From positions 4,920,101 through 4,984,100 of the forward strand of contig NC_092677.1 of NCBI RefSeq assembly GCF_964355755.1: a DNA stretch of 64,000 nucleotides, given 5' to 3'. Under the pieces are notes generated by a model, which saw only the letters and a list, made by a program, of their open reading frames with translations, had not been told where the DNA came from and made no database searches. This DNA is from Antedon mediterranea. Its lineage: Eukaryota > Animalia > Echinodermata. Both the position numbers and the translations under genes were made by a program. The stretch's first letter is position 1; every line of letters starts with the position of its first letter. Positions 6,428 through 36,818 of this stretch are shown here, piece by piece.

Positions 6428-9400
6428 ATGTATTTTCTAGTAATATTGCTGAATTTTATAACTAAGGGTAAATGTTTTTTTTTGTATTTTATCACATCTT
6501 AACATAGCAATAGAGATTTCTGCAGGTTAGAGTGCCGTTCCGTAGGTATGATCATCAGGCCTCTGATCTGACAACCCACATTAATACATGGAGCAACAAA
6601 AATAAAAAAGGCTCCTCATGTCTATGTCCTTTAGGCCCTTTTCTCACAGGCTAGATGCCTTCATCATTACTGGCGGTTTATACCGGTACAACTATTTACA
6701 TTGGACTGTTATGCTGGGAATATAACCAGTTTGAAAAGAAAAAGGGACGAGTTCGCGACACTGTTTCAATACTCAAGATTGTCACCATTTTTCAAAATCA
6801 AGAATATCACATGTACAGGTTTATTTTTACTCTAGAAATTTAACATTGTAACATATAGTAATGCAGTACTCATGAGGTAGTGTTCTTTAATTTGCAGAAG
6901 TACATGGTCAGTCGATTATAACATTTAACCAGACAGCTAAAGAAGGTGATTCTGAAGTACTGATAACTTGTGATTATTCACAATTTACTTCTACTACACC
7001 TGGTGGAATACAATGGGATGAACTAAATGAAGATGGATCTGCAATAAACCTTGTGAATGATAAGAAGTTACAAAATGGACGTTTTAAATTGAACATAAAA
7101 CCTGGGAAAGCTGACTTGGTGATGTCACAGCCAACGAGAAATGATTCTGGACAAACATTTCAGTGTGAGATACGAACAAATGGAGATATTAAAAGATCAA
7201 ACCCATCTATTTTAACTGTATATTGTGAGTAACGGATTCAATTTCAATAATTGACTATAGCATTGCATAAATATATGTATAGCATGTTTAAAAGCCACTC
7301 CTTACTCAATAACTCAGTCTATAACTCACAAATCTAAAGTATTGATAATTGTAAGACCTTGGGGATAACTGCTGCTTTATGCTTGTAATATAATCTGCCA
7401 CCATTTTTTCTTTTTACTTAACTGTATGTTCTAATAAATTGACAAATTTCCAAGAAAAATTTCTTTTTAAAAGCTCCCATTTAGTTTATTGCTGGGTAAA
7501 ATTTAAGTGACACATTTTTAATATTTTATTTTCTCCTTTCACAGACTTGAATCAACCAAATCTTAATGCAACAAATGGCATCTATAAAGGTCAATCCATG
7601 AGATTTACCTGTAGTAAATCTGGTGAGCCTACCCCTTACATTACTTGGTATAAAGATGGACAGCAAGTTAACAACTCTAGATATGAGATTGCAAATAACA
7701 GTACAGAGTCAGTTCTTAAGATTAAATCAGCTACTGAAGAAGATGGAGGGAATTATACATGTAAAGCAGAAAGTGATCAGTTTAAAGGAGAGGATGCTAA
7801 AACAAGTGTTGGAAGACATTTGACTGTATATTGTAAGTAAACATTACTTACCCTAACAAATCTGTAAAGTATATAATAAATAAAGAGCTTTTACGCACGC
7901 TCGTATTCTTAAGGACATTAGTCGTAGGTCGAGCTAAAACTTCATTCATAAACCGAACTAAATCTGTGACTAAATCAGGCCAACCTCGACTAATCGAGAC
8001 GGATTTTGATCGATTTTTTTAAGTCCTCGAGGGGGAGGCTAAATCGCCGACTAAATGGTATTTAAACAATGTTTATAAAAAATGTAACAGTTATTGAGAA
8101 ATGAAATATCTATTTTTATATTACTGTAGCTTAAAGATTTATTGTCTCCCCTGAAAAAATAATTCTTAAAACAAATTTTGATGAATATGCCATTTTAATG
8201 TAACATTATTAGTTATCCACTTTGACCAAAAATTGGATTGAAAAAAAATATATTTACCGGAAAAAATGTTTTTTTTTTTTTTTTTTTTTATAAGTGAAAA
8301 CATGATTTTTTTCGGTTTTTTTTCTATTGATGTGATAAAACTTTATTAAAACTACAAAACACAGAACATTATCTTCATTTTTCATGTTTATGAGGGACAG
8401 TACATCTTTAATTAAATATACATTGGTATATGTTATAATAATGGAAATCATCTTTATTTACAACCATATACAAATTGCATTATTTTCTTCGCGCAAGTCA
8501 GACTTGAACTATGTCACACACCACAGCGACAATGGGAGATGCGGAAATTCACCACAAAAAACCACCACCAAAAGCTCAAACTAGTACTTTTTGAAGTTGA
8601 AGAATACGAGCGTTAATTTTAATGTATATTACAGTGCATGAATGATATTTGAATAAAATTAGTGGATGCTTAGTCCACAAAAGAGAAACAAATTCGAATG
8701 AGTTAAGTTATTTGGTAATAGTCACAATGGACTTCTGTTGAGTTGTAACAATAGCTGATTAATTCATGAATACAATAGATTTAAAAAATTAACTTTTATT
8801 TTTTTACCAACAAATACTATAAATAAAAATTTATATTAAATTTTTCATATTTTAGATATTGCTGTTAATTTTACATCTGAAGATGGTATTGCAACATGTA
8901 CAGCAGATGGCCGTCCCAAGCCATCATCTGTAGTGATATTACAAGATGGAGAATTGGTTAAGAAAGGAGAAAATACATCAACTATAGAAATAGATGACAA
9001 GATATGTCAATCAAATATTACATGTAATGCAGAGAATGGACAGCTATATAAAACAGCAACACTTGAGAACTGTGAAGCAGGTAAATATGTAACATTTATG
9101 CCAGGTAGTTTTATGTAAGTTAAAATGTTCCTGAGTTAATAATTAATTTGGGATAAATATTCAGAGATAACTAGAAGAAAATTGAAACTGATTTTGCAAT
9201 CCTATGCCTACCTAGATCAATGCTCCAAAAGACTTAGTACTGTACTACTTTGTTGACACAGTTTTGTACAGAAGACCAATGGCTTAATGTCTTATCTAGA
9301 GCACAAGACAAAGTAAACCTGAGAAGTTCCTGTTGAGACAAAGCCTATTGATTTTCATGAAAATTGACATAATGTTGATATAAAGTTATCTTTGTTTTCA

Positions 9401-12400
9401 ATAGTGTGCCCTCTGTTGCCAAAAACTGTTTGTGTTTTACTGCACAGCAATTTTTTATTTATTAAGACAAAACCATAATAAATCTTCATAAAGTAACTAC
9501 CATTTGTACTTAAATACAATTGTAAATATTCAAAAAAATTTAAAAACTTCAAAATCAAATAAATCTGTTTCAAATGTATTTTTCTTAAAATTTCCATTCA
9601 AAATTTGAAGTAGTAAGAAAGGTAAGGCAGTCCAAAAATATGCCACACCCACCTCCATTTTTGGTTCCAAAGCACTTTTTTAAATTGTTTAGCATTTTCG
9701 TTTAAGCAATAATTTTGATTCAAAGTTTTGTCTCTACTTCCAAAATCACTGAGATAGGTTACATTTTTATGTTGTGAAACAAAATATCGTTTGATCAATT
9801 GTAGGCTCAAATATTAAATTGAAAAACATTTTTTTGATATGTTATTGGAATTATTAAATCATTTTTTACAGATATTTCACCAGGTTCAAGACAGTTGTAC
9901 ATCATCCTAATTGTTTTAATTATTTTATGGTTACTGCTTCTTTGTTGTAAGTAAAACCTCTAATCTCTTAATCATTTTATTCTCAATTAGCATGCATGGA
10001 CATAGAATTATCCTAAATAGTATTCACAAATTCCTCACCCCAACTTAACTCTGTCGACATAAGCGCTCTGCGCAGCTGACCACAAGTGACAGACCCACAG
10101 CGCAACATGTAAAGAATAACTATTGAAATAGGCGAGTTTTTAGGACAGATTTGAATTTAAAAGGAAATGGAGTGAGCAAGTTGGTTCCAGAACTCTGGTG
10201 CCTAAGCAAAGAAGCCCTTAGGCACGGATTTTAGCTTAGATCTAGGTGGTTTTAACATATCCGTTTAATGGTAATAATAATGGTTTCAAATTCAAATTCA
10301 AATATTCTTTATTCATCCTCTATCATGAAAATATACAACAACAATATATGAGAACATAAAAAAGATGAAAAGGAAACACATAAAAACTCAAAAGAGCTTG
10401 ATTAGTTGTGTCCCCCTATGTCCCTAACTAGCCTAAAAAACTAAAACATAAATAATAAAAAAGCTAAACCCTGGTTTAATTAGTTTGTGAAGATAATGTG
10501 GAACAGTTTCATCTTTAAGTTTGTTTTATTTATACCACTGTCGCAGCTGAAGCTGAATTACTGTGTATTTACATTAAAATGTGTTCGTTTGTTTGTTTTA
10601 TTGGTTTCTCCACACATTTTAAAATAAAAGATAAAAATTACAAATTGCAAAAAGAAAATTACAATAAACAAGAAAAACATCAAAAATGTGCGGATGGACG
10701 TCAAAATAAGTTGCGAACAACTTTAAGTCGTGACCACCAGTTAAAAAAAAAAAATGAAGGTATACAATAGCAGTCCGGCTTACATAAAAAATACAGAAGC
10801 TTAAATTGCAAAGACAATAGTACAATTACAAGATGAACAATATGATAAGGTATTCAATTCAATAAAGTGAAGAAGAAAGGAAACAAGAACAACAAGAACA
10901 GGAGATTTAGCTGCCATATGCTGCGACCAAAGACTTTTTTAGGTTAGATTTGAACAAAGGTAGATTAGGAAGAGATTTTAATGAAATACTTAATAAATTC
11001 CATAGTTTTGGACCATTATAAAAAATCGATTTTCTTCTTAAATGAAATGTATCGTTTTCAGATAAAATATTTGTTTTAGCAAATCTTGTGAATATCAGGT
11101 TGTTGTTTAGGAAATAATATGATTTGGTAAAGAGTGATTTTTTAGACGATACATAAAAATATAAGTTTGTAATTTGTGTAAATCAAATACATTAAGTATA
11201 TTAAATTTATTAAATAAGTTTTTGGTGTGAGCTATTCTGGTTGACCCTGCACAAATCCTGATAGCACGTTTTTGTAGTTTGAAGATGTTGTCAATATTGG
11301 TTGCTTCAGGACTCGTCCAGGGACACAAGTAAAGAAATTTATCAATTGTGGTAGCCCAAGATATGTTACAATAATTAATATACAGTAGGGTAAAACTAAG
11401 GTGTTATATAAAGGTAAAAGAATGTGCTGTAGGAGATAGTGCTTTAGTTTATTCATTATTCCAATGTTTCTAGAAATTATATTTGAAATATTATTACGAT
11501 GGGACTGCCAGGATAACTTTGAGTCTAGGATAACACCGAGAAATTTTGTTTCATTAACTTGTTTAATTGATTACACTATCATTAATTTTAATAACATCAG
11601 AGTCTATATTTTTTATTTTATAATTAAAAAAAATATAGTTAGTTTTATTAATATTCAAAGATAATTTATTTAAATTGAGCCAATTGGAAATCTTAACTAA
11701 TTCATTATTTGTAGTTTGCACAAGTTCAGTAATATTTTTGTGTGAAAAGAAAATGTTAGTGTCATCAGCAAAAAGAACAAAATTGTGTAAAAAGATTTAA
11801 AAACAGTAAAAATTCAAGAAACAATTGTTATAAGCGCTCACACACTGGTTCCGTTCAGTTGCTCGAAAGTTGACATAAGCGCTCTCCTGCAACTGGTTTG
11901 TTTCAGTTCGACCTAAGCTTGCATAATTTTAGAATCGTAGTGCTTAGTTTCGTTAATTATTCTTTTGGAATTTTTCTGAATTCAAGGGGAAAATATGTGT
12001 TGACTTATGATTACGCAAATTATGTAATGACGTCTAATTTTTTTTATTATGTAAGTGAGTAAGGCTTAAATAAGAGTAGAAAAAAATATAAAAAAGGCAT
12101 TTAAAATAATATTAAATATATTTACAATTCTTTTATTTAGATTTTATGCATTGTAAGAATATTGAGTGGAGTAATACAGATGTTGATATAGTGACAGTTG
12201 AAGGTGGTAAACCAGTTGAGATGAGTTGGAAATATCGTCCAAGTATTGCATGGTTCAAGAATTTTGGAATAAAGAAAGAAGACAAAATGCTTGGTTCAAA
12301 TAAAAAGCAATTCAGTAGTTGGAAAACAGTCTGCCAGTTTGTCTGTTATTGTTGTGCTTACTTTTGTGGATTCTTTTGTATTGAATACTGTAACAAATCA

Positions 12401-15400
12401 TGTAAGTTAAATTTGTGTTCATTTTATCAATACACCATTGTTTTTCTTTTCAGTTCCTTATGATAAATCATACTATTTCAAAGGGTCGAGATATAGACAG
12501 TGATGACCATTAAATTCTGGAAAGAACTTTGCACAAATTATTTTTCATGGGAAAACCTAAACTTTATACTGTAGTATTGTATTACATTACACAAGATATG
12601 TTTAATACATTTTTTTTTAGATAACAAAGATGATAAAAAACGAGAAAGCAGGTGAGTTACTTCTATTAGAATTTGTATTGAACACATGGCACAAGGTCTT
12701 TCTTGTAGTTTGATATTATTAGGTTATATGCATTATTATGCATATAACCTCTTGATTCTGTCAAAATCTTTATTTGCTTATTTATTCTTTCCTTAGCACT
12801 ATTTTGTCCGTCAATTATCTTGATATCAGTTTCATCTATCTAAGTCAATTTTTCGGAGTATAATTCCTTATGGTCAGGAATCGATGTGGTTATGTTTTCA
12901 AGGTGCGCAATCAAAAATTACGCGGTCTACGCGCGATTTAACGAAATCACGTTTGTAATCATATCTTCACAAGCATGAATTACAATTAAACAAAATTTGG
13001 TACTCATAAATTTCAGGTCATATTTCATCATATGGCAATACAATTACGTGCGTAGCGCATATAACGCATGCGTACGCGCGCTTAAAATTTTCAAAATTGT
13101 CAAAATTTATTTTTGATGAAATTAGAGTACGTTTCAGGCAATTTTAAGCGTTTAAAAAATTGCCATGAGTGCGCAAATTTTTTTTTAAACGTTAATGCGC
13201 ATTATTTTTGTCCAATTTCTGTTGTACAATCTTTCTTTAATAATATCATCATATTTTATTCACTTTTCAACGCGAAATTGCGTTATACGAGCACTTCAAA
13301 AGTGACAGGCTACGCACGTGTAAGTTAACAAAATGGTGAAAATATGCTAAATTTTTAAATTAATATAGATCGTCAGAATGCTCGGGAACACCTATTTTTT
13401 ATTTCAGTTTCTTGAAGTGTATGTATCATATGTATGATTTATTATGAAATTAATAGAACAAAAGTTTATTAAGTCATCATTAATTGCATTTTAAATTTTT
13501 TTAAATTAATTTCGACAATCAAACAAATTATGACATTTTCTTAGGCCAAAATAACAAATTAACATTAACTTTCTCCCTTAAAAAGTTCATTATATTAAAG
13601 TTAAAAGTATATAGTTTGACAGTGCATATTTTTTTTTATTTTTTCAAAATGTCATCATAGTAAAAAATTATAATTCATTGCGGTATTTAATAATCTATCT
13701 GCACCAAAGTGGTTACTGTATTGTAAATACACGGAGGAATCTTTCTACAACCTTTAGTCAGTTGTGTATGGCTTGGTGGTCTGTGCTCGTGTCTATGGCA
13801 TTCAAGGTACCGAGATCGAGTCTCACCTTGGGAAACGAAACGAAATAAGATTTTTTTTATTATCTGTATTGTTTGCTCAATGTTATTTCTTAGTGTATAG
13901 ATTATACACATGATTTATAATGAAATTATATATATTATATTTAATGTAACTTATGTCTTTATTATGTAACAAATGTGGTTTATGACATTATACGCAGAGG
14001 GATCTTTGATCGGATTTTGTATTGTGTTTGCATTAGCAAGATTCTGCTGTCATATATTATAAATAACTAGATGGTACGCTCGCTTCGCTCGCGTACCATC
14101 TAGGTCGTGCCCACAGATGGTTCTCGAATACACAGTAATTTCAGCGTAACAAAACTTTCGATTTCAAATGTACGTACCGCAGGACAAATAAATAGACAAT
14201 GTGATTTATGTACTCAACTAAAAATAGCACCCTGGGAATTACTTCCGAAAGAGAAACTTGTCACAAAATGAGACCAATTGTTTAAGTCAAATTTAAACAA
14301 ACTTAATTTGTGTTTTGTATGTAACATTAGGGTTGAGGGATGGGGAAGAGGATGGGTGGAAAGAAAGAGGAACAATTTTTAAATATATTCTTTATCTATT
14401 TAGTAACGAAATATTAATTGTTTTCATGTTTTACAAATAATATACCACTAAACACAGTAAAACATTGCGATGTAATACTTTGTTGAAACTATAACCGTCC
14501 AAGTCGATTGAAATAGTACAGTAGCCTACATGTAACGATGTAACATCACTACGACGTGTATATGTTTATATAATGTAAAACAATTTGTGAAAACCACCTC
14601 TATTTGGGGAAAATCATAAATTCGATTTGATCGTCAATAAATATTAAATTATCTAACTCAACTTAATAAGTAGGCCTAATGGTTTTCAATTGTTTCTTAG
14701 AGCCAATTCATACTTAAGTTGGTTCCTACCCTACCCACCAAAGTTGTTCTGCGTTTAGGGCATGTGATGTACCGTAGGCCTATCCTCTACTGGTTTTACA
14801 ACGCTACTCATGCCAGTGAGGGAAGGGTGATGATGTGGGTGGTTTAATTGCAATAATAAATATTTGTACATAATATACGGCGAGTGAAAACTCTAGCTCA
14901 TTATCCGTTTAAAAAAATGTATATCCAACCACTGCAGCACAGATTGGAAAAAAAATGGATCGAATTTCTGCAGGTTATGAGATATACAGTACTTGCCTTT
15001 ACGACGCCTGAGGGAATAGACGCTTGTGGAACAGAGATTGGAATGTTCCATTCATCGCAAATCAATACATTTGTATAAACGTATATTAAATCTATCAAAA
15101 TAGTATTTTTTTTAAGAAAATCGGCCTGTCTTCAACATTATGATGCTGTACTCGAGCTGTTCAACCGGTTTTCAGCCATTAAAAACAATTATCGTATGAG
15201 GAGATAGGAAAATGCGAAGCATCCTCGTATTATTGTCTGCGGGTATTTTTCAAGACGGACATCCATTAGACAGTGTATACCACGATCGAAAAACACCCCT
15301 ATTTGGGGCAAATCGTTGAACCTAAATTCGTTTTAATCGTCAATAACTAATTATCGAACTCAATTTAATTAGTAAACAGGGTTACATCAGGTGGTTAAAA

Positions 15401-18400
15401 TCAGTACCGAAAGTACGAACCAACTTTATATACCATCGAGTAAACATTCTAGAAATAACGCGCGATTTACCGAATTTTGCCCTTACGTAAATTTATATAT
15501 AGATGAAAGATTCTGAGAAAATCAATCAGTCAATATGTCTTTTAAAAATCAATTATCTTTATTTAAATCAATGCATATAACCTATAATTCGTCATAGTGA
15601 CGAATTAAATCTAGTTATCTTGTATTGTGTTAACCCTACAGCAATGGTAATAGAATTAGTGGTGAAGAGTATCATGATGGGTGTATGGTATCTTAATGAT
15701 GCAGAGATCCCTGTTGTAGTTTACCATTAGGGATTTTTTTGAGATTTTCATGTCAACTGATAACTTATGATGTCATTTTTATGATATACTACCGCCAAAT
15801 TTGAGAACTTGTTCAGTGTCATTTGCCGTTCGCTCTCTGACATGAGTATGTAGTATGACTTCATAAGACTGCAAAAGTTTACCAAAATCATGGCGGAGAA
15901 TGATCCCGAGATGATTTTCTGAGAATACAGTAAAGGGCATTTCAGTTAAATTGTATTTACAAAGTGTGAATTATTGAATTTATTGGTTATTTTTAAATAG
16001 TTTAATACTACAGGTTAGGGCCTGAGTTTTGTCACTAGGACGCTAGCCTTTGTTCAGAAAAGTAAGGATCTAGGCTAGGCCTAAGCTACAGCCTACAGAA
16101 GGAGATCCAGGAATTTTAAATAGGAAGGGTCCTTTGAGCCACAGCGAGCCCCTTCCCACCTCCTCCCTCCATAGTTGGTAAATAACACCCCCAGATGGTT
16201 GGAAATGGTACTCTCCAACAAAAAATTATGATAAATGGCACCTCTAGTTGGCCCGAAAATAACACTCCCATGTGTCGCACAACAATCAGCAAAACGATCA
16301 GAATTTTTCCGCCGTATTTTAGATGCGCGTGTTTGATCGTGCTTCACACAGAGCCGGGTGTTTTGTTTTGGTTTGCGTTACCGTACAGGCTACATGCACT
16401 CGGACTGTCAACCAATTGAACAGAGTATTCAGTCGATAATACACAGCTGTGAGGCTTCCCCCTCTTCCACTTCTCGAGTCCGCCCCTTAATCAGCCCAAT
16501 GAGACCATGTGCATGTGCTTTGGTTGTACACGCCCGATCGCGACATTTATTTTTGTACATAAGTTGGGGACCCCTCATGAAACATCACAAAATAAACATG
16601 AATATTCATTGGTCATATCCGTAAGGTGTGACGTACAAAAACAAAAATCGTTGCCTTAGCTCCAAAAGCTCTTCTAGAGATTACAAGGTCAGATCCCAAG
16701 ATCATTACATCATACATTTACTAACACGTCGACGTAAATGTCGACTCAATCTAAACGTTCATATCTGTCAATGACACATAGTGAACATTTGGTCATATCT
16801 AAAAGTTCCTATTGAGTATTATTATCTTGTATTGTGTTAACCATACAGCAGTGGTAATAGAAGTGGTGAAGAGTATCAGATGATGGTCAATGAAAGAGAA
16901 TGTCCTGATGTGCCAACAGTCTCTGGTATCTCTGGACCACCAGCAGGAGTCTCTGGTATCTCTGGACCACCAGCAGGAGTCTCTGGTACCTCTGGACCAC
17001 CAGCAGGAATCTCTGGTACCTCTGGACCACCAGCAGGAGTCTTTGGTACCTCTGGACCACCAGCAGCAGTCTCTGGTATCTCTGGACAACCAGCAGCAGT
17101 ATCTGAATCTGAACAAAAGTTAGAGGTTGGTTAATAAATAGGGAGGTTGCGCAATGCTACAAATACGATAAATAAAACGTATTTGTTTTCGTTAGCCAGT
17201 AACAATCAGTTTCGCATAGCAATGAAATATTGAGGGTGCCGTCCAAAAAATATGCCTGTGGTAAATTTGAACGAAGTGCAGGTACGTGTTGCTTGGCCAT
17301 CTAGGCCAAGCATAACAACAGAGCAAGTAAGGAATTTTCAATTGACGTGACATTTTTCGTAAAAAACTTTCAATAAATTATCTATGATTATATTACAATC
17401 ATGAATCATTATTGTCTCAAATCAAAATGTGAAAAATAGATCAAAAACTATACTTGTTTTGTAGTTACGATTATGGTGATATTCGTCAATATGCTTTACG
17501 AATATGAAATGGGCATCAGCTCAAAAGTTTTAAAAATGTGTGAAATTATCGTATTCGTTCAAACAATTAAACAGACAAACAAACAAATTAAATAGAGTTT
17601 GTGAGAGTATATTTGAAAGCATTATATTCCTAACATTCTTCTACTTATTCACAGATAACTCCTGATGATGCTGAGGATGATGAAGGTAGTAAACTTTTAG
17701 CAGAACCTCAAGGACCATCTCATGGAAATGAAATTGTTACTGAAGGGGAAGGTAAACTTTGTTATTTTATAGAATACTTATAATACTGGTTCAACAATTA
17801 TTGTTTCTTACTATTATACATTTCCAAATATTAGTTCAGTTTTTAAAAAAAAGTGTAGGCCTACATTAGATCTGTCATTCGCATATCCTTTCATTCAATC
17901 AATAAACATAGCTAATTTGGTTAAACTTATGTATACATGTACTTTTGTTTTTCCAATTGACCCAAAATATTCCATAATGCTGTTTCTACATTATTAAATG
18001 GCATTTGTTTTGGTTTTTTTTTAAATTTATTTTTAACTATGCTGTACGAAAGAATTATTTTTCCATAGTTCTATACATTCCAATTGATTTATTTTTAAAT
18101 TTATTAATCGATTTGGTTAAGTATGTTGTTATTCCTTGGTCAATATATTAGCCCTTCTGTTTGTTTACTGTTTATGTATTATATTATTTTTTGTTTATTG
18201 TTAATATAGCAAACGACTCAAACAGGTAATTAATTTGTGGTTTTATATCCAGCAAAGCTTCTTGTTAAAATTGCTTACTCTTTTAAATTCAACAAATGTT
18301 AACTGGCGTTTTATCGTCTAGCGTTGTTTATCCTATGGCGCTGATGAGTTGGTATGGCGCTAGCAATATAAAAAAAGAGGAGGGGGCACGTCCTTTTGGA

Positions 18401-21400
18401 CCTATTGGTGGCGCCAAAGAAACTCATCGTTGTCATTGGCCTAATTGTTGCCTGGGTTGGGCTCTATAGTATTCATCTACCATATATTATCAAATAAACT
18501 TTTTGAGGTTAGAATCTTAACTACTTACTGTACTTGACTAGCTGTCTCTACCACTTTATAAATGATGTATATCACTGTTAATTAATTTTATTTAAATGTT
18601 TGGCATTTTAATTTTCACATGCTTAAATTGGTTTGGTTTCTGTCTTCTACAAATTAAGTTGAAAAAAAAAACAACTATTATCTGATAGTTATCTGAATTT
18701 GGTCTACTACTACTATGTTTACTAATGCAAAATCAATTTGTTTGTGAGCAAATTGCATTTTTATAACATTGTTTAAAGGCTTCAATATACATATAATGGT
18801 TCTTCTGTTGTAACTTTGGTCTTCAAAAACCCTACTTTCACTTTTACAGTTTTACTTCCTTTTCTTATAAAATTGGGCTTGTTCGTACTTTGATTGACAG
18901 AGTTTACAAATTGAATAATTCCTGGTCTAGCTTTAACAATGACATTTCAACTTTTAAAACCATTTTAAGTAAAAACTGTTTTCCACAACATTTACAGATA
19001 TCTTAATAATGTTTTCTCTCCCTGCAATGTTGCGTCAGTTGAGTCGATTATTGAACAAAACAAGGTTCTTTATTTTAAATTACCTTACTTACAGTTTGCC
19101 AAATGCGCACAACAAAGAATCGATAAAATTACACGTAAATATTGCAAAGGTATTAATATTAAATTAGCTTTCAAATCATTTAACATTTCAAACTTGTTTA
19201 GTCTTAAGGACCCGGTCCCCGATATGTTCCGCTCTCGTGTTTATATAAATTTAAATGTATGGGATGTAATTCTATGTATATTGGTGAAACCAATAGACGG
19301 TTGTCAATGCGGGTGCGTGAACATTTCAGGGACAAGGCTTCTCACATTTTTCAACATCTGCAGATTCCGCTTTCAAACTTAAGGTCAAGGAAGCCCTCCA
19401 CATCACGTGGAGTAAACCTTCCCTGAACAAACAAATCTATAACTTAGGCGTCACACTTACCATATAATTGTTTGTTGCTTACATTCCTTGTTGTTTTATT
19501 ATGCTAATTACTTGCTTATTTACATACAATATGTCCTATTCGTATATAAGCACTCTAGGCGTTGTTTACGGTTCTGATGATGAGAATAGTTTCTCGAAAC
19601 ATGTCACATTTTAAGGCAGTTTGCCTTTTCATTGAATGCCTCGCTATAGTAATTTTAACTTGTAAGTTTGGTGGTATTATTCATGATTTATCTAACATAT
19701 AATATAATTTTTAATGGTAAACTAAAGTTAACACAGTGTGTACCAGCTTTTATCTTAAATTTTAGGTTATGCTTTGTGAAGAGTGGTCTGCTTCATTACA
19801 CTTTGCAATATTTAAACTTAAGTGGATTTTATTCTGCAGTGTGAATTTTTTGTCCTCACTTTATTTACCAGTGTTACCGCTGTAACATTGTACGTTATCT
19901 GAAAATATTGCAGTGTAAAAGTGCATAATAAAAAATCATGGAATTTGACCATACTGTATGTTTTAAACATAAATTAAATTAATCCGTTCCCTGATTATTT
20001 TTTTTTTTATATAGATCTCAAAGTTCATACACAAGTAAGTAACAGATATCATATTTGTAATATAACATTTTACAATATTACATAACATTTACATTAACAT
20101 TACATTTTATATTGATTTTAAAAATTGGAAATAATAACTCTTGTTGTCTTCAATATCAAAATATATATATATTATGCTCATTGATTGTAAGGTATAATCC
20201 ATTTTCCAGTGGTGATGTACTAGAAATTGTATCTTCAACACAAATGATATGTACACACCATGACCCTGACAATCCTGACAAATTTGTGTTGTTAAACAAT
20301 GTGGCTACTTTGATTGCATGCGGATAACTTCAGAAGGGAAGTTGATCTGAAACAATATTTCTACAATATGGCATGAAATAAATAAGAAAGAACAAGTTAA
20401 ACTTGATAGGTATTATAACCCTAACCCTAACCCTAAGCTTCCAAAGTGAGGAAATTGCGTTTTGCGAATTTCTAAGAACCACGCCTCTTTTTTACATATC
20501 ATATAAGGCGATCCTATTACCGGTACAATAGTAAATCATATTTCTAGAGTTTTGTCAAAATTTGAGGCAATCGCGCAGGGCTTTTTTTAAATTTAGAAAT
20601 TGGCCCTATTATTTGTTTTTCCGTATCTTGGGAGAAATTTATTTGATTAAACATTCTACCAAATTACACCTAAAAAACACCTCTCTCAAATTAATGCCTC
20701 CCTCAAATAAACCCCCCCCCCCCCCCCTAAAAACACTCCCAAAAAATTATAATAAATACGGTAATGACCATGCAAACAGAAACACAGTAATAAATAAAAT
20801 TTACTTTCAAATTACATTAAGAAATTAAATTGACATGTCTGCATTCATTTTCCTTAGCAAATGGTAGAGGAAGCATCAGCCTAACACTTTTAAATCCTGC
20901 AAGATCTGATTCAGGGAAGTACAGCTGTAGTATAGAGGGCAGTAGACAGCAGTGTCCAGGTGTTAAGAATTTATTTGTTAATTGTGAGTTTTATTTCTGG
21001 AAATGAACTTCATAAAAATACAAAAAAGAACCATTTGATAATCTTATAAACTTATACAACATAATGAAAAAAGTCAAGGTTTAATAATTGTCCTGTTTTG
21101 AGTAACACAACATAATAAACACAATTAATATATTTTGTATGTATATTAAGTATACATTATTAATGCTTTTAACAAAAATGTTCATGAATTTTAAAAGAAA
21201 AATTACAATTGTATTGGCTCAAATTTATACGACACAGCTGGTGACTAACTGCAGAGTAATCGCTGCCCATGATTACTTTGAAACTAAAATAAATTTTTCT
21301 ACGAATATTAAGATACTGAGATGGTAGATCACAAGTATTCAACAGAAGAAGATATCAGTAATTTTAAAATGAAGTGCAGATATGGACCAGCAGATATGCC

Positions 21401-24400
21401 ATTAACAGGTTACAAGTGGAAGAAGATTAAGGAAGATGGCACAACAGAGATTGAGGATTGTTATAAAGATTCTAGATTTGAAGTAACAAGTTACCAAAAT
21501 AGCATTCTGTCTTTGAAGATAAAGAATGTTGTACTTGATGATGCTGGCAAGTATCAATGTGAAGTGAAGCCAGTTGATGGAGAAAAGAAGCTGGAAGATA
21601 CTACACAGCTAATAGTGAAGAAAGGTAATTGTAATCTGTATTTTACTTGCCAACAAAATTGCAAATACTTTATTTTATAAAGAAATTAATGAAAAATGTT
21701 TTGTTTCTTCATTTTGTTTTATAGACCTTGTTATAATGAATATTCCTGCTGTTACTACTAATGAAGGTAGGAATTCTGATCAATTGTTGCTTAACCTTAT
21801 GTGGGTTGGTGATGCTGCTGCAATATCCAATACATGTTGGTATAAGAAAGTTGAAGGTGGAGAGAAGGAACTGCTGACATCGTTGTAATAATATGTAATC
21901 TAATGTTGAAAGTTAAAAACATTTGTTTTCTTAAAACTGTAAATCCTAAATTAATTATGAAGTGACCTAAAATAAACAAAGACGGACTTTTGAATTTAGA
22001 TCCGTCTTCTATAGTAGTTTTGATCTTCGGCCTAAAATTTAAAAAAAGGAAAAAAAGCAATAAAAATAATGTTAAAAACAATAGTTTTAGCAACTACAGG
22101 GATCTTTAAGAAAACTGGTTTGTGGACTAATTTTGTTTTCATTTTGTCATACAATTTGATTAGACAATATTTTTGAGTGTATAATGAACTAATTTCATCC
22201 AATATATCATACTCACAGGTATCACAATGAATGATAATCTTGTTACACTTGGAGAAAAGGGTATTTTAACTTGCAAGTATAAAATTAAGGATAAAGTAGA
22301 AGTTGTCAATTGGTGTAAGAAGAAAGAAAACAAGTTGATATTTACTTCTGATGAATCTCAACAAAAGAAGATAGAAAAAGTGCCTAAAAGATGTAAAGCA
22401 ACTTATAAGTCTAATGAAACAAGCTTAGAGTTTGAGAAAGTGGAATTCACTGATGCTGGAGAGTATATATGTGAACTTAAGCCGAAGAAACACAATATTA
22501 ACTTTATTCCAGACAGAATTAGAAGAAAATTATCATTTTCTTCACCCCATACAAAATCAGCACACTTACGTGTACAGTGTAAGTAGATTGGTGGAGATTT
22601 CTATAGGTCTCTATGAAAATAAAATAAATATATTGCCTGCATTAAAAATATTGCCAAATTTTTAAATAAGTAAAATAACATATGACCAATTACTCAACTT
22701 CCTGATGCTACTCCACTTCATGGTATGTAATTCATAACAAATTATGACACTTATGACTGCATATTCAATAATATTTTAATAAATATTTTGGTTTTATAGT
22801 TAATGTGTTTACTGCAGCTGATTATGAACACGATAACACATACAGGTAAATGCATGGTTCTTTAAGTTGAATGTTAAAGTGTTGCTAACCAATTGGTTTT
22901 GAACAATACCATGAAAGCCCTAGTGGTCTAATAGTTAGGTCATCTGCTTTGTCATCAAGCAGAATTATTTTAATAAAAACCGTAATATATATTGGTTTTT
23001 TTTTAAATAATTTGTCAGAGTACTTTGATTTTTTTTTATTTCATTTGCTTTATTCAATATCGGCTCATTACAATTACAACAGAAAACATAAAAATATATA
23101 ATGAAATAAAAAGCCAGGATTGTCAAAAGCGAACCCAATCACTGTTTAAAGATTTTCCTTTAACAGAAATACAATATAATAAATAATAATATAGGCTAAA
23201 TGACGGTTAAAAAAAAAATATATTTAAAAAGCAAAATAAAGAAAAAAAATGGTTAAATTAAAATCTAAGACTCAAATCAAAAGGAAGAGAGGCAATGAGA
23301 GGAGAAATCAGGAATGGAAATAGGCGAAGACTAGTCACAAAATCTCGAAACCTGCTAAGGAGAGCAAGGTCTCTTAAATCAGAGGGAAGACCATTCCAAA
23401 GTTTACAGAATCTAGGAAAGAGTGAAGATTGACAGTTCGAGCAAAGGGTGGCCTAATTTATCAGGGGGCGAGTGCACTTATATTATACTTACTCATCCCA
23501 TGCACATTAGTATATAACCACATATTTAAAAAACAGGTTACTGCAGTATACTGTTAATTTGTATCCATTTTGTTCTCTTATTTTATAGACGTCCTGCAGT
23601 AGTTTTTATAAATTCTCATGTTCTTGTCTTTGTTGAGAAAAATAACTCAGATGTAATATTGAGAAGGGGAAAGATGAACATAAAGAGTTTGATTGAATGG
23701 GAAGAATCAAGAGTTATTTTACACGAAGAAGATAAAAGGTATTACATTTGAGTATGACAGTTATCTTGTCTTTAAAAAGTTGGGGTGTTTTTTTAACAGC
23801 AAGGGTGGGTTTGGGGAACACACCATGGATTTTAATTAATAATTAAATAAATTAAATACTTTGTGAACAATCTTAGGCTAATTAGCCATCTGGAAATTCA
23901 GGCTTTCAGAGCAATGATTTACAAACATATGTACTATAAAAATATTTCTGATTTTTTTATTCATTCTATGTAAGAAACACTAATAGAAACACTTTTTTTT
24001 TTGGCTATCCACAATCCATATGTGTGTGCTATGTATGTAATGAAAATGATGTGAATGAAGTTTGGAATTGGAATTTGAAGGTTTCCAATATTTTTAAGTA
24101 GAAACAAAAAATTGAAAACATGAAAATGATTAAAATATGCCAAGTGTGTGTTTGTTTTTACTTATACTATTTACCATACAGCTTTCAGAATCTAGTACCA
24201 ATTGTAACACACAACGGAAAGGTGATTCTAATGTGTGTTAAACAAAATAAAAACACAAAAGACTGGAATACAATAAAGATAGAAACTGATGATTATGGAA
24301 ACAATTGGAAAGAACCATTTGATGTAAAATTTCCATCAAAAATCGAAGAAATTACATCCCTCCTATGTGAGTATAGGCATGACCTATTCATGGCTTGTAT

Positions 24401-27368
24401 AAAATGTGATAGTTTTGGGAGTTGCCATGGCTAAACTGGCTATGCTGTGCATAATATCTGAGCTGTGCATATGAATGTCACTGAATTTCAAATATTAAAA
24501 TGTTCTTTTCTGCCATTAATGTGCTGGTAAAATGTTTTTGATAGTTGTAAATATTATCTATTGAATGTCTACAGTAATTGTACTTTCCTACTTTAAATTA
24601 CAATCAAATACTGACTAACCTGATAATCTATAAAGAAGAATAATGCAATTAAAACTAATAATTTGAAAATATCACTTATTCTTTTTCTCCAAAATAATAT
24701 TTTGTTATAGTTTAAAGATGTATTGTCCCTTGAAACACAAAAAAAAAAAAAAAAAAATATTCTACATTTAAATTAGCCATATCAAAGTAATATTAAAGTT
24801 ATTCACTTTAAGTCGAAAATTTGAGCCAAAAACAACAAGTTTACGTAATTAACAGGTAAATTAATTAGATTACATTTCGTCTGGGAAATCGTCGCAAGCG
24901 AAAGTAAACAAAGATTTCAAACCATGAGTATGCATTATGCATGATGCTAATTAGGATTGTTTACAACTCGTCACGGTTGAAAAGGTGTTTTTACACAGAT
25001 CGCGAAGAAGTTTTATGATTATGCATACAGAGTAGCCAAACAAGCGCGTTGCATTATGAGATATGTTTTGATTGAAAACTTTGACTGGAAGTCAAAGTTA
25101 TTTTTTGAACAAAAAAACATCTGTATTTCGGTTAAATTTTTTTTTTTTCGACTAATTTTTGGTGAAAGTTAATAACTATTATGATACTTCAAAATGACCC
25201 CCTTTTTTTGAAAATTAAAAAAAAATAAATTTTTTTTTAATTAGTCAAAGGGCATCTGATCTCTTTAAAAAATACCAAAATTAAATAAAAGTACTACAAA
25301 CTATAAAAGTAAATTTTTATCTTTTTGTTTTAACATATATTATACACATACATTTTTTTTAGGCATTGATGGTGTTTGCTTAGAGTCAGGGAATCTGGTT
25401 CTTGCAGGAGTTTGCAATATCGACAATAATGGCAGTAAAGAAAGTAATTATTTAGAAAATTTGAATATTATTATTTATACTTGTATTGTATTAGCTTTTT
25501 ATAACAGACCCTGGCATTACACATGACATTCACTTATTTTAACACACATATTTTCTATAAATACTTTTTATAGAAATAAAAATAGGCTATTGAATTAGAA
25601 TCTATTTCTTTATAGAATTATCCTGACCCTGGTTTAAAGTCCCATTCCCTACATTTTTTTTATCTCATTTAAGGTCACTAAGTACATTTAATGTAAAAGT
25701 AAATACTATATGGTCCTATTGAGATAACTTTTTTCGTCTTTAAACGTTTAAAAATGTGAAAAATAAGTGGATTCTAATAATTTTAGCGTCCCGCTATAAA
25801 TCCCAACATGCATTGTGTACAGATTGATATTTTCGTTTTTCTTCTGTAATTCACCCACTTTTCGATCGATCGTGAGGCCAAAACAATGGAAGACTTTTTC
25901 AGTGAAAGTACCGGTTTTCCCCAATTTATATCAACGGATTCTGGCAAAAACAGAAAGACAATCAATGCAGCAACTATACAACGTCAGGCTAGGCCTATAG
26001 CTAGCATACGATGTTCGTACATTACCGATGTTTACCAGCTAGGCCTACAAAACTAAGCCTAGCTAGGCTAGGCCTAAAGACCGTCCACGAGAGGACATTT
26101 ACCGTGAGCTACATTTAAGACAAGGATTGACCTGGTTTAATGTTTTTAAAGTTATATATATGCATTATTTTTACAAAACGTCACAAATTGTAGGGAATGG
26201 GTCTTTAAATAATAAGTTGTGTTTTTCATTTCAAAACACTCACACTCAATGTAATATCACAAAAAATTGTATACACTGGGACATTTGTCAGAAAAGTACA
26301 CATGATTCAGAAAATATTTTGTTGGCCCAGCATTAATACTTTTATATGAAAATACATATGCGGTAATTTTGCATCTGTCATGAGCTATTAACAGTCATAA
26401 GAAATATAAATTATTTGTGTTGTTTTTGTAGGAAGCCTACTTGTAATAATAAGTACGGATGATGGTGACAACTGTAACATTGAACATGTTATTAAACTAC
26501 AAGTTACATCAGGAATACATACACAAGTAAGAATACGAGTGAATTCTCTTTTCATACAATAAAATGTTTTTAATTAACACACTCGTATAATGATTTTTAT
26601 TACCTGTAGGTTGTTGAATATGGTCAAGATCAAGTTTACATCATCTGTACATTGGAAGATGATAGTACGCATCTTTTTATTATAAACAGCAAGGATGGAT
26701 GTAAAACAGTTGATGTTGTGAATGAGAAAGAAGAGACAAATCTCGAATGCCAGGTATGCGATGTTATTTTGTATCTCTAGTGGCTACTGTCATTTCTTTG
26801 TCATATTCTATAAAGCACTACTACTTTATGCATTACACTCGTACACATTGTATGTGTTACCTCCGCCAGAAAGACGAGAGGTTATGTTGCCTAGGCCTAG
26901 ATCGAGATTTGCGCTTTCTGTGTGCACTTTTAGTAATTTATATTTAAATAGTATATAAATTAATAGTCTTATTTTTACTCGCATTTATCAACACACAATG
27001 ATTATTTAAACTATATTTGCCTTATTTATGGTACATAAATTACGTTGTCATTTAAAATCTCTTAGAGTGGTATTATACCAACAAAGACAGATGAGTTCTA
27101 CCAAATAGCAATGGCAAGTCATGGAAATGAAACAAATAAGGATCTTACACTTTACTTAAGTGAAGATGGTTGTAAAACCTGGTCTAAGTTTAACACACTA
27201 GGTGCAGTGAATGCAGAAGAATCTGACCTAGCTTACTACAGTGTAAAAGAAGGGGAAGAAGAAGCAGAAGGAATAGTGTGTGTTTACAGTTATGGTTCAG
27301 AAACAGAGGGGTATAATATTGGAATGCAGTTGATTTCTAAGAAAGAAATTAAGCAAACAGAAATATAA
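6428..27368 (+). CDS. IgSF membrane receptor gene B, long form: SP-IgV-IgI-Ig-like-TM-(split Ig with Cys-rich segment)-Ig-Ig-sialidase-like domain
   Basis: Exons 6428-6467 (MYFLVILLNFITK), 6898-7224, 7545-7832, 8856-9080, 9872-9946 (TM LYIILIVLIILWLLLLC), 12141-12401, 12621-12651, 16849-17125, 17655-17751, 20858-20983, 21313-21624, 21725-21766, 22219-22578, 22800-22845, 23589-23738, 24182-24366, 25363-25443, 26432-26526, 26610-26753, 27066-27368 (TAA). Every junction is GT-AG and phase-compatible with no internal stop. Which internal exons co-occur in one mRNA is inferred. Confidence 0.75.
8135..8407. mobile_element. Kolobok-like MITE (TTAA TSD, AG...CT termini)
   Basis: ttaa|agatttattgtctccc ... 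gggacagtacatct|ttaa; same TIR family at 6079-6183, 24716-25264, 37763-38121 and from 63099. Confidence 0.65.
10285..11790 (-). mobile_element. 5'-truncated, decayed LINE (CR1/L2-group RT C-terminus plus 3' UTR)
   Basis: Minus strand FADDTN, KFLGVILDSKLSW, LYNTLVLPY, LQKRAIRI with frameshifts; ends in AATAAA and (ATTTGA)n tail. Confidence 0.85.
12721..15614 (+). mobile_element. Non-autonomous Helentron/HINE-like element containing a nested Helitron
   Basis: 5' palindrome aggttatatgcat-tatt-atgcatataacct, matching subterminal repeat at 15571-15583, 3' hairpin aattcgtca-tag-tgacgaatt, then CTAG. Confidence 0.65.
14067..15503 (-). mobile_element. Non-autonomous Helitron, copy 1
   Basis: Minus strand A|TCTATATATA start, GC-rich hairpin atggtacgc...gcgtaccat next to terminal CTAG|T, no TSD; collinear with 34622-36110. 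Confidence 0.85.
16919..17100 (+). repeat. Coding 30-bp tandem repeat, about 6 units (VSGISGPPAG), in a gene B tail exon
   Basis: gtctctggtatctctggaccaccagcagga repeated; frame fixed by flanking splice phases. Confidence 0.9.
18820..19660 (+). mobile_element. Decayed Penelope-like element (RT thumb plus GIY-YIG endonuclease plus 3' repeat)
   Basis: GLVRTLIDRVYKLNN..ILSKNCFP, YFKLPYL, YKFKCMGCNSMYIGETNRRLSMRVREH, LKVKEALHITWSKPSLNKQ across frameshifts and deletions. Confidence 0.85.
19565..19612 (+). ncRNA. Minimal hammerhead ribozyme motif of the Penelope element, probably degenerate
   Basis: CTGATGA-t-GAGAA-tagt-TTCTC-GAAA-CATG-TC; palindromic helix III; helix I pairs poorly. Confidence 0.55.
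20015..20197 (+). CDS. Alternative terminal exons of gene B, short form ending DLKVHTQ-V* (or -W*)
   Basis: Micro-exon 20015-20034 with strong acceptor and gtaagt donor, phase 1 to 0; next acceptors give GTA TAA (20192) or TGG TGA (20210); AATAAA at 20377-20382. Confidence 0.55.
22800..27368 (+). CDS. Sialidase (GH33, NEU2/3/4-like) beta-propeller domain of about 330 aa, predicted catalytically inactive
   Basis: Seven exons give in order TYRRPAVV..VFVEK..VILRRG..IEW, FQNLVPI, Asp-box TDDYGNNW, GVCLESGNLVL, STDDGDN, SKDGCKT, ECQSGI, DLTLYLSEDGCKTWS, SDLA, collinear with animal sialidases. Confidence 0.85.
23030..23460 (-). mobile_element. LINE 3' end fragment
   Basis: Minus strand KLWNGLPSDLRDL motif, then UTR, AATAAA and A-rich tail. 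Confidence 0.6.
24716..25264. mobile_element. Kolobok-like MITE
   Basis: ttaa|agatgtattgtcccttga ... tcaaagggcatctgatctct|ttaa. Confidence 0.65.
25638..26204. mobile_element. Kolobok-like MITE, second family
   Basis: ttaa|agtcccattccctaca ... tgtagggaatgggtct|ttaa. Confidence 0.75.
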
Positions 27369-30250: not shown

Positions 30251-32985
30251 TCACTAATACAAATTGTGTGCTTGAAATCAAAGAAAATGTTGAAAAAAAT
30301 TCTCTGTATGCATTATGAAATACTTGTTATTATGATGTAATATTTTTATAAATGTGAACAGTAAAGTAAAGTAAAGTCTACCTTTTTTTGGTTCTGATGA
30401 ATACTACAACATTTTAGTAAATAACTAATGTATACCGGGAACAGATTATTAGAAATGTCGCATTTATGTTAAACATTATAATTGTCCACAGTGAAATTCA
30501 GTCTGTTTGAATATGACCAAGTAAAGCCTAACATTGAAACATAGAAACTGTTTTTACCACCGCAAGGCTTTCGTCAAACACTTTTCATCATCACATATGA
30601 GTTTAAGGAATCTGTGTCTTTAATTGAATAGTATACTATAGGCCTACTGTACTTCATTTCATTTCGCATTAATAATACTATATTAATATACTATAGTCAT
30701 TGTCTGTTATTGTATTAGTTTATGTGCCCCAAAAGTAGTACACAATACTTTATGGTATGTCGGTACGATTTGCACAAAGCGAGCTTATTTTTGTTTATAT
30801 AAGGAAGTTGTCTCACTTCTACGCCAGCCAATATATTATTTGTAATACAGTAGTGCAGCGCGTTAATCGTGAAAAAAGAAAATTTCGTTGATTTTTAACG
30901 TTTTTTGTTGATGTTTACGTTTCGAGTTAATTTTACGTTTTGTTGCGTAGATTTTTAAGGTGTTTGTATCAAAATCGTTGATTTCACAGTTTACAACAGC
31001 TTCAACGTCCTGAAGGAATGTTTTACGTTGGTTTGTAGGCCTACAGTACTGTACACTAATGTATTGCTTATAAAATTGAACAAGAAATATGAATAATTAA
31101 CGACGAAATTGGATGTTCATTAAAGTTTTTCCATTTTTATATCAATATTTTTTTTATTTGCGGATTGTTATGTCAGATTTTTCCGGGGCTCATTTTCGGT
31201 TAGCTTTCGACATTTCGTTTACACATATGTTTCAGAAACAAAGAGTATATTATAATGGAAAGCTATTGATTTCTAAAAAACATTAGATGATATACTAATA
31301 AAATATCTGATACTGTTTATTACATTTAAACAACACACCCTTTTTTGCCATTTGTTACCTGTACAACAACACATACTTTTTCATACAGTTTATATTAAGA
31401 AAACAAGTATAGTTTTGTTTGCATAGTCGATCGTTTTCGGTGTGACTTTTCGTCGTTTGTTTCGTTTATTTGACCAGTATCAACATAATGCAATACCGTA
31501 CAATATAACATAAAAAGGCCGGACACAAGCAGCTTTTCAAATTAGCCAGATGGGCCTATAAGTAGGTTAATCAATCAGTAACATTTTAATAAATTGCAAT
31601 AATAGTTTCATGTGTCTACACATTTTATTAACAAAGTACAATTAAGCATGTAAGATGCGAGAGAAAGTTTAAAGTTACTATCTACTCTACTTTCTATTAT
31701 TTTACAATTTTCTAATCTTCCTCAACTTGTTTATGTTGCAGCAGTAACGTAATTGCTATCAAAATACTATAACAAAGCACCGTATTTGTCACAGAATTAT
31801 AAACCGCGCTGAAACCTCGGTAACTTGTAAGCAGCGTTCATCACTGTTTTACAGTATTTCAAATGCTATTGGTTGTTATATGTATTAACAACGAACTTTT
31901 AAATGAGTCGTCTGTACGACACAGAGTAGACCTCGTATCTTGTATCATCATTAAGGTACGATAAACAAAACAATTATTGTTTTCATTTGCATAAGATGTT
32001 TTCAGTGTGACTTTCTATACAGTTTGCAGTATACTTTCTATTTCTACTTTCTATTATTTTACATTTACATAAGTTGTTTTAAACTTTATCAATTAACAGA
32101 TCTTCATTTGAAAATTTGTTCTCATTAACTAACTACTTGTAAAAATAATGCAGTAATTATCGATAATAATCAGTCTGTTCGAAATAAACATAGGCCTAAC
32201 AGATAAGATGGTATCTCTCACCTCTTCCAAATTACAAATTTCTATGTGTACCAACCATACTTAATCATGGTTATCTTATCTTATCTTAGGCCCTAATTTT
32301 ACTATTCATTACTTTATAACTTAAACACTAATTCGGGATGAACGTTTAGTCGTATAACTGTTTACTATAATGTGGTTCTGCAACCTTTTCTTTCTGTGAC
32401 GTAATACAATCACGAGGCTCTTCATAAATGACCTCTTGACTTAAAGAAATAGGACTTTCAGGAGTTTGACATTCGATTTCAATCTCTTTTCTTTCCTAAA
32501 AAAACAAACAATAGCAATAATAATTGATTGTTTCTATTGAATATATTTTAACAAAATATTGTTAATGATGTGTTAAAATGTTATCAATGTATGTGCCATG
32601 TCGTAGAAAAGATGGTTTATTAGTCACTAACAAATTCATGGTACTTAAAAACAAGTTTCGATTGCTTATGATATAAGTAAATGTACTGGGTATATTTATT
32701 AATGTCAACAGAATCTTTCCTACACTGAACGTTATTTTTTGTTAAGCTTAATTCCCTCTTGCATGCAACGTGTTGTTTTTTCCCGCTGTTCACTCCGTCA
32801 AATCGAAAAAAACTTCGGTGTAAGAGTACAACCATAGAGGAAATTATACAATAGAATATTGGAAAATTATGATTTCAGTCTCCCATTGATTCTGTTTTGT
32901 TGGAATACTTCAACAGCGTCAAACCACAGAGTTGTCAAAATTAATTGTAAATCTGTTCAGTATTAATGTATTTAGGTTTTTTTAC

Positions 32986-35900: not shown

Positions 35901-36818
35901 CACCCCTATTTGGGGCAAATCGTTGAACCTAAATTCGTTTTAATCGTCAATAACTAATTATCGAACTCAATTTAATTAGTAAACAGGGTTACATCAGGTT
36001 GTTAAAATCAGTACCGAAAGTACGAACCAACTTTATATACCATCGAGTAAACATTCTAGAAATTACGCGCGATTTACCGAATTTTGCCCTTACGTAAATT
36101 TATATATAGATGTCGGTTTATGATGGGTTTTTTTTTCAGGCTACAGTACATCATGATTATCTGTTATACTCACAATATACAGTTAGCATAGATGGACTTA
36201 ATAATTTAATCAATCCATCTGCGATTTGTATCTGGCATCTAAATCTTCTCTGAGAATCGTTTCTTAAAGGATGTAAGATCACCAGGCTAGCTTCACCAGG
36301 AGCAGTGTGTAACCGGAAACGTGCATTTTCCATCTTTTTATCATTCACAATTCCTGGGTTGATCGTTACTTCATCTTCATTTAGTTCATCCCATTGTAGT
36401 GAAGTAGGAGTAGAAGTAAATTGTGAATAATCACAAGTTATCACCACTTCAGCGTCGCCTTCTTTAGCTGTCTGGTTAAAGGTCGTTTGACCATGTGCTT
36501 AAAATATTAAAAATATCCTATTGTTTACATTTAACCATTTTACTGTTGATAATTCAATATTTAACTGCCGCAAACTAAAAAAAAATATTTTCTATACTAT
36601 ACATACAAACAAGTAAAAAGAATAAAACTGCTTTCAACCTACTGTTTTTAGTTTTACGCGTTTGTAATCTGGTTATATAAAACTATTTCAATATTAACTG
36701 GCTGACTAAAAATTGTATTTGTCGTTTAGTTGTTGATTATCATATTTAGTTATATTTTAATTATCTTACCGAATAAAGATTGTAGATATACAATAAATAA
36801 AATTCGCTTCAACCCCAT
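32986..36818 (-). CDS. IgSF type-I membrane receptor gene C with paired-tyrosine cytoplasmic tail; last exon or stop not resolved
   Basis: Exons 36818-36770 (MGLKRILFIVYLQSLF), 36497-36174 (V), 34291-34025, 33715-33449, 33301 or 33298-33207 (TM VGLLTVAIIIAFILGSVLTCYIA), 33105-32986 (QRRLREVHSKYQNLQCQVKTQSNVDVYSKINRGQFRTRTQ); phases consistent. Confidence 0.85.
34622..36110 (-). mobile_element. Non-autonomous Helitron, copy 2, in a gene C intron
   Basis: Same termini and internal sequence as 14067-15503; extra hairpin/(TA)n insert near 35505-35557. Confidence 0.85.

Follow-up and report, generated by a model that had tools for sequence, protein, structure and literature searches.

Whether an immunoglobulin superfamily (IgSF) receptor can carry a sialidase-like domain behind its transmembrane (TM) helix, all within a single gene, is the question raised by a locus at 6428-27368 in a 64-kb stretch of Antedon mediterranea DNA (the window, meaning the whole stretch analysed). 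The initial annotation had proposed that exons for a signal peptide, three Ig domains and a TM helix are spliced in frame into seven sialidase exons. We rebuilt 22 exons from the window, and the proposal was borne out. All 21 introns were GT-AG and the frame was free of stops over 1166 codons. A search with the last exon returned P0001 at 100% identity, and the spliced frame agreed letter for letter with this protein (XP_071958647.1/XP_071958648.1, 1166 aa, Antedon mediterranea 'uncharacterized protein'), a record that probably comes from the same assembly as the window and is not independent DNA. Between 17751 and 20858, the join between the two halves of the gene depends on a pair of micro-exons, 16 and 20 nt long, which the initial annotation did not mention and which are both used in the P0001 model. 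One protein stands under two RefSeq accessions. From the micro-exons and the multiple accessions, and given the habits of the NCBI pipeline, we assume that the model has transcript support. Read run X1 covered some exon and repeat bins, had zero joints in 16800-24700 and is neutral on splicing; runs X2-X4 behaved as DNA. Reads of paralogs were indistinguishable from those of alleles. The prediction is thus of a single gene, whose product is an IgSF receptor that has a domain derived from a sialidase behind its TM helix.

The focal protein consists of a signal peptide, three Ig domains, a TM helix, a Cys-rich stretch, a basic and then an acidic linker, three further Ig domains and a sialidase fold. 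The linker contains a 10-residue repeat. A signal peptide (by eye), an Ig ectodomain and one TM helix are the features of a type I IgSF receptor. Hydrophobicity analysis gave a single strong segment at residues 302-320 (KD 3.1) and a weaker Cys-rich one at 381-399 (KD 1.77). Pfam found Ig families, and it assigned residues 867-1118 to BNR_2 with E 1.5e-15 and 57.8 bits, the cut-off being 31.4.

Table 1. Exons of the focal gene and the sibling receptor in the window.
Feature	Position	Strand	Evidence
Exon 1: start codon; signal peptide (predicted), aa 1-13	6428..6467	+	hydrophobic core, AHG/VHG-type cleavage context, by eye
Exon 2: V-type Ig1	6898..7224	+	V-set E 3.4e-5, under curated cut-off
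Exon 3: I-set Ig2	7545..7832	+	I-set E 3e-19
Exon 4: short Ig3	8856..9080	+	Ig_2 E 0.0015
Exon 5: TM helix, aa about 302-320	9872..9946	+	KD 3.1
Exon 6: probable N-half of split Ig (aa 324-376) and Cys-rich hydrophobic stretch (aa 381-402)	12141..12401	+	
Exon 7: polybasic stretch 3' of the Cys-rich segment	12621..12651	+	
Exon 8: linker, YxxM motif (Y425), 30-bp tandem repeat (16918-17105, 6.3 copies)	16849..17125	+	
Exon 9: acidic linker	17655..17751	+	
Exon 10: 16-nt micro-exon joining the gene's two halves	18210..18225	+	related residues in 4 paralogs
Exon 11: 20-nt micro-exon	20015..20034	+	related residues in paralogs
Exon 12: C-half of split Ig, aa 553-594	20858..20983	+	
Exon 13: post-TM V-type Ig	21313..21624	+	V-set E 3.2e-7
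Exon 14: 14-aa remnant, start of an Ig exon complete in paralogs	21725..21766	+	
Exon 15: post-TM V-type Ig	22219..22578	+	V-set E 2.3e-10
Exons 16-22: pseudo-sialidase propeller (predicted), aa 833-1166, and stop	22800..27368	+	
Propeller exon limits	22800-22845, 23589-23738, 24182-24366, 25363-25443, 26432-26526, 26610-26753, 27066-27368	+	
Sibling receptor, 7 exons, 423 aa, candidate GT-AG model	32346..36818	-	own splice model

The join of TM helix and propeller was not confined to this gene. It was repeated in P0005, P0006, P0009 and P0010/P0184, whose linker and micro-exon residues are related. Each paralog had 3-6 Ig motifs after the TM helix, and the last exon was 83-87% identical among five paralogs. 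Six more Antedon models (P0002, P0003, P0004, P0007, P0008 and P0042) were TM-less or fragments; these family counts are based on protein records alone. All Antedon copies lay on one 28.6-Mb contig with the exception of P0008. This model, on another Antedon contig, has Ig domains and a propeller without TM or signal, begins at a half-Ig and is represented by three RefSeq accessions; it may be a soluble cytosolic form.

In a profile search of 1.84 billion representatives, the next matches after the Antedon copies were P0040, P0041 and P0045 of Anneissia japonica. P0040 and P0045 had Ig domains, and P0045 started at the same half-Ig as exon 20858. The TM helix was absent from all three Anneissia models, and the fusion to a TM helix is known in Antedon alone. 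A Pfam scan of 51 of the 143 new profile matches, showing the best 5 families for each, gave Ig families only in P0040 and P0045 and in none of the 49 others. As 150 of the 404 matches were listed, there is room for fused forms in further taxa. The receptor had been described as lineage-specific: among the matches examined it was indeed found only in crinoids, but it is a member of an expanded family and not a lone gene. On the architecture search in related genomes that the initial annotation had suggested, the protein matches gave a divided answer, with the Ig-propeller half common to Anneissia japonica and the TM join found in Antedon only.

Exon 20858 was initially described as beginning in the middle of an Ig domain. 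Profile evidence agreed, since this exon (exon 12) encodes the latter half of an Ig domain. The segment that directly follows the TM helix, residues 324-376, resembles a first half that lacks the B-strand Cys. When a profile was made of 31 Ig segments from these proteins, the two halves joined together scored 18-35 bits against it; in each of five proteins, the first half was shuffled 500 times and only 0-2 of the shuffles reached the score. With HHalign, the joined halves gave 95%, and the first half alone gave 9% with E 0.0035, a weak match of 4.5-11.3 bits. The insert between the halves was 104-171 residues long, and co-folding of the two halves, with the alignment unused, was neutral on the split (0.13). 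The conserved block after the TM helix comprised 55 residues, and across the family no part was better conserved than the exon-6 block, with 68-83% identity among paralogs. Exon 20858 probably completes an Ig domain that begins just after the TM helix.

The sialidase-like part was modeled from 87 sequences with a pLDDT of 89.8, and the seven exons gave a complete six-blade propeller with Asp boxes. The best PDB match was human NEU2 (TM-score 0.80, Z 34.5, rmsd 2.9 over 317 residues). Together with the BNR_2 assignment, this confirmed the NEU2/3/4-like fold that had been read from the exons. The ESM Atlas returned sialidase clusters for the propeller and no usable match for a query of Ig plus propeller. 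AlphaFold modeling of the full-length protein with 8 sequences gave a poor result (pLDDT 39.5), which was left unused.

The catalytic site told a different story from the fold. The available part of PMC3431349 gives six essential, fully conserved sialidase residues, R21, D46, E218, R237, R304 and Y334 of NEU2; these numbers were placed on the focal protein by motif equivalence, with NEU2 itself unaligned. The catalytic columns were invariant in 19/19 microbial sialidases, and all seven Antedon copies retained the first Arg only. In the focal protein, R848 is the one kept member of the arginine triad (R21, R237, R304), with T1032 and N1090 at the other two positions, and the nucleophile pair (Y334 and E218) is replaced by E1118 and H1016. 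The loop with the acid/base Asp (D46) was deleted in 7/7 Antedon copies, and the alignment was ambiguous there in two Anneissia copies. Across the Antedon copies (n = 7), the second Arg was changed to Ser or Thr, the third to Asn, Glu, Asp or a gap, the Tyr to Glu and the Glu to His. The two Anneissia copies had His and Ser as in Antedon, and Phe and Ser/Cys at the third Arg and Tyr positions. In 9/9 crinoid copies, the Glu position held H, the second Arg position S/T, the third Arg position a residue other than R and the Tyr position E/S/C, whereas E, R, R and Y were kept in 93-95 of the 99 other aligned rows. The substituting His was fixed in all nine crinoid copies and the substituting Glu in all seven Antedon copies. 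Judged from these positions, the propeller is a pseudo-enzyme and not an active GH33 sialidase, five of the six catalytic positions being lost. Because the Anneissia copies share substitutions, we infer that the loss is older than the split of Antedon and Anneissia. Sensing of sialic acid by the propeller is doubtful because two of the three carboxylate-binding Arg have been lost. Among the roles suggested initially (glycan sensing, scaffold or decoy), glycan sensing is consequently the least supported, and scaffold or decoy remain.

The propeller also proved to be of host origin. The dead copies grouped with the intact crinoid sialidases P0046 and P0043, which are sialidase-3/4-like proteins, with support of 100/98. 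A clade of dead copies with microbial enzymes was rejected (p-AU 0.003), and support against 12 microbial rows was 100/100. This tree was built from 29 selected rows of 110, leaving out the metagenomic P0131 and long-branch rows, and no NEU1 was identified among the rows; a quick first tree with long branches agreed on the animal placement. By this phylogeny, the propeller descends from the crinoids' own NEU-type sialidase and belongs by descent to the animal NEU2-5 lineage. Horizontal transfer from bacteria had been considered when a search returned, beyond Antedon, only metagenomic or bacterial-type sialidases; the Anneissia homologues and the tree refute it.

What might such a protein do? 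The reading that we favor, with a little more than even confidence, is a single-pass immune-type receptor in which a non-catalytic docking platform is made up of the cytosolic Ig array together with the dead propeller. The three outer Ig domains would likely bind a surface ligand. In a type I topology, everything after residue 320 would be cytosolic, and the Cys-rich stretch would be a lipid-anchored helix on the inner leaflet. Ligand binding or clustering might lead to phosphorylation of the YxxM tyrosine and so to recruitment of partners to the Ig array and the propeller. The family may have arisen when phase-1 exon shuffling placed an Ig-array/pseudo-sialidase module behind the three-Ig ectodomain, and may then have evolved by duplication and loss, like clusters of immune or self/non-self receptors.

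The topology of the tail was assessed from several features. Before the TM helix, 33 of 97 Asn were in sequons, versus 40 of 250 after it, the latter rate being near chance (Fisher P = 0.0004, from four non-independent paralogs). Invariant Cys columns amounted to 8/8 in the ectodomain, 10/21 in the post-TM Ig domains and 6/17 in the propeller. Several post-TM Ig domains had no B-strand Cys, and several others retained the canonical Cys pair. P0009 has no Cys-rich stretch and keeps the rest. The Cys-rich stretch is flanked by lysine-rich sequence on both sides. An acidic YxxM occurred in 4/5 paralogs, and the tyrosines of the focal linker, which was the only part scanned, gave YxxM and not ITAM or ITIM. 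YxxM is the consensus for PI3K-p85. The tail is quite probably cytosolic because of the low post-TM sequon rate, the poor Cys conservation, P0009, the lysine-rich flanks and YxxM. This reading is weakened because three propeller sequons are conserved (N866 in 8/8, position 921 in 7/8 and N1087 in 7/7 copies), as expected of a lumenal domain, and Cys pairs are retained. The membrane topology of human NEU3 is itself unsettled, according to the part of PMC5482835 at hand.

These last features would fit a single gene for a two-pass protein, in which the Cys-rich stretch spans the membrane and the Ig array and dead propeller become an extracellular arm for adhesion or lectin-like binding. The stretch has a KD of 1.75-1.9 over 19 residues in 4/5 TM-bearing paralogs, and the accessible text of PMC4393008 reports sialylated gangliosides in echinoderms. 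Against this, P0009 lacks the stretch, the polybasic cluster and YxxM come after it, post-TM sequons are near chance level, Cys are poorly conserved, and the probable split Ig would straddle the membrane. With two of the three carboxylate Arg gone, sialoside binding is also doubtful. We regard the two-pass arrangement as unlikely, though deserving of attention.

A candidate sibling receptor sits tail-to-tail with the focal gene, 5 kb away. Its ectodomain has three Ig domains that are 58-63% identical to those of the focal protein, its TM helix is different and its tail is short. The tail contains an ITIM match, SKYQNL, followed 12 residues later by a second motif, YxxI; there are other tyrosines as well. 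By the definitions in the available part of PMC9546547 (ITAM, Yxx[I/L]x(6-9)Yxx[L/I]; ITIM, [I/L/V/S]xYxx[I/V/L]), the YxxL-x12-YxxI pair falls outside the ITAM spacing of 6-9. The two-tyrosine pattern was found in 0.11% of shuffles of one 40-residue exon, in a test picked post hoc. It is predicted that one type of ectodomain serves two unrelated tails, the propeller and the ITIM tail, and that one branch exchanged a short tail for the Ig array and dead sialidase. Such shuffling is easy because the exon borders are phase-1. The window held four copies of the three-Ig ectodomain; with the 3-6 post-TM Ig motifs per paralog and the ITIM sibling, these are the immune-type points, and a crinoid immune-type receptor family is the best reading of the sequences.

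The two other ectodomain copies are cassettes. The one at 3647-~990 (-) lies head-to-head with the focal gene and has a candidate signal exon, two Ig1-type exons (3475-3110 and 2902-2546), Ig2 and a diverged Ig3. The one at 54895-57490 (+) has an Ig1 that is 82% identical to that of P0009. No TM exon was found for the former up to the window edge or for the latter to 64000. Mobile and repeated sequences also occurred. A small LTR element (27640-30016; LTRs 98.7% identical, TCTA flanks) begins ~270 bp past the focal stop codon, and the first AATAAA downstream of this stop (27918) lies within its LTR. At ~48500-54560 (-) there is a retrotransposon-like element with terminal repeats 92% identical, whose long frames resemble, by eye, gag, protease, integrase and reverse transcriptase/RNase H. 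A 1.5-kb repeat, 88% identical between 14073-15505 and 34633-36112, is intronic in both the focal gene and the sibling. More direct or inverted repeats of 0.7-0.9 kb occur at 40164-45361 and 58614-61967. The segment 31217-31280, possibly a decayed copy, matches the final part of the last propeller exon at 80%. The bridging intron of the focal gene contains a high-copy repeat (18900-19700), in which there are GIY-YIG-like words and a signal-peptide-like ATG..GT stretch at 19577-19661.

If the docking platform is replaced by a sensor, the cytosolic propeller would mimic the host sialidase, or offer a new His/Glu pocket, and bind a microbial factor or metabolite before signaling, possibly together with the ITIM sibling. 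It is a borrowed host domain, derived from the crinoids' own sialidase, whose activity has been lost; the His and Glu are fixed as described above, the last exon is highly similar among five paralogs and a sibling with the same ectodomain lies close by. However, both ligand and effector are putative, the last-exon identity could also be explained by gene conversion, and Anneissia has S or C in place of the Tyr. We consider this decoy or sensor reading distinctly improbable. The same low expectation applies to its extension, an animal counterpart of plant decoy pairs in which the propeller would bait or sense cytosolic microbial factors and be balanced by the ITIM sibling. If true, it would be a decoy pair with a dead sialidase of the host's own, grafted behind a variable intracellular Ig array and a split, membrane-pinned Ig.

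The annotation could also have merged two neighboring genes, or a rare read-through: an Ig receptor gene with its end near 17751-20400, and another gene that encodes a cytosolic Ig-pseudo-sialidase. There are TM-less models (P0003, P0004, P0008, P0040, P0041 and P0045), of which P0008 and P0045 begin at the half-Ig, as well as AATAAA hexamers and a right-phase signal-like stretch (19577-19661) in the interval. The stretch, however, is inside the high-copy repeat. The hexamer at 20377, initially taken for the polyA signal of a short form, is one of seven across the AT-rich 17751-20858, and the short isoform itself was not seen, since the P0001 cluster had one member and none was short. The join is common to five loci with related micro-exon residues, and exon 20858 starts in mid-domain with its probable other half in exon 6. 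The earlier judgment that a separate downstream gene is unlikely was therefore upheld, and we think two genes very improbable. That an adhesion receptor here tethers a membrane sialidase or trans-sialidase with activity is barely credible. The intact fold nearest NEU2, the first Arg and the Asp boxes are kept, but the protein has lost the nucleophile Tyr and the Glu that pairs with it, as well as the loop of the acid/base Asp and two Arg, and all six residues are essential and fully conserved according to the part of PMC3431349 at hand.

A full-text literature search, outside which lay most subscription papers and supplements, found no description of an IgSF receptor with a sialidase fold, in line with the initial statement that no such receptor with a post-TM sialidase was known. 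On whether the architecture had already been catalogued, the answer was split: the protein is present as an uncharacterized RefSeq model, and no description of its architecture was found in this literature. In the accessible text of PMC11999971, a 2025 review of invertebrate IgSF proteins, 'sialidase' has 0 occurrences, and the part of PMC3431349 available describes animal sialidases as enzymes that stand alone and in which all six catalytic residues are fully conserved. The family would be a pseudo-sialidase of animals, conserved and expanded, that serves as part of a receptor; it occurs in crinoids, a group in which immune receptors have received little study. The cluster, in which a common ectodomain would be combined with tails of activating and of inhibitory type, is a candidate for innate or self/non-self recognition in crinoids. 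It may also be a natural case for studying the reuse of an enzyme fold as the tail of a receptor, and whether Ig arrays can work on both sides of one membrane protein.

Several known systems resemble parts of the favored docking receptor. PTK7/Otk with its pseudokinase and the LAR family with its D2 phosphatase are IgSF receptors with cytosolic pseudo-enzymes; they share the Ig ectodomain, the single TM helix and the intracellular enzyme fold as a scaffold, but the dead domain here is a glycosidase propeller after 3-6 intracellular Ig domains, in a lineage-restricted and expanded family. Butyrophilins have cytosolic B30.2 sensor domains and plant NLRs have integrated decoy domains. In both, a folded, borrowed module lies on the cytosolic side of an immune receptor clustered with siblings, although the domains are unrelated and ligand and pairing are only putative here. 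Inactive trans-sialidases of Trypanosoma are likewise an expanded family with a sialidase fold lacking the catalytic Tyr. They keep the Arg triad and bind sialosides, whereas two of the three Arg are lost in the focal protein, and organism and architecture differ. Animal GH33 enzymes, NEU2/3/4 and the NEU5 group of invertebrate deuterostomes (PMC3431349, as far as available), share the six-blade fold, the Asp boxes, the first Arg and descent, but not the loss of five of six catalytic positions or the fusion behind Ig domains and a TM helix. In the Alr family of Hydractinia, single-pass IgSF receptors lie in clusters; their ectodomains are related, and their tails, which bear ITIM/ITAM motifs, diverge (PMC9546547, in the part at hand), a pattern into which the sibling fits. 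The tails there bear motifs, 'sialidase' occurs 0 times in the available text of that paper, and a role in allorecognition is putative for the focal family; the likeness drawn here is one of layout.
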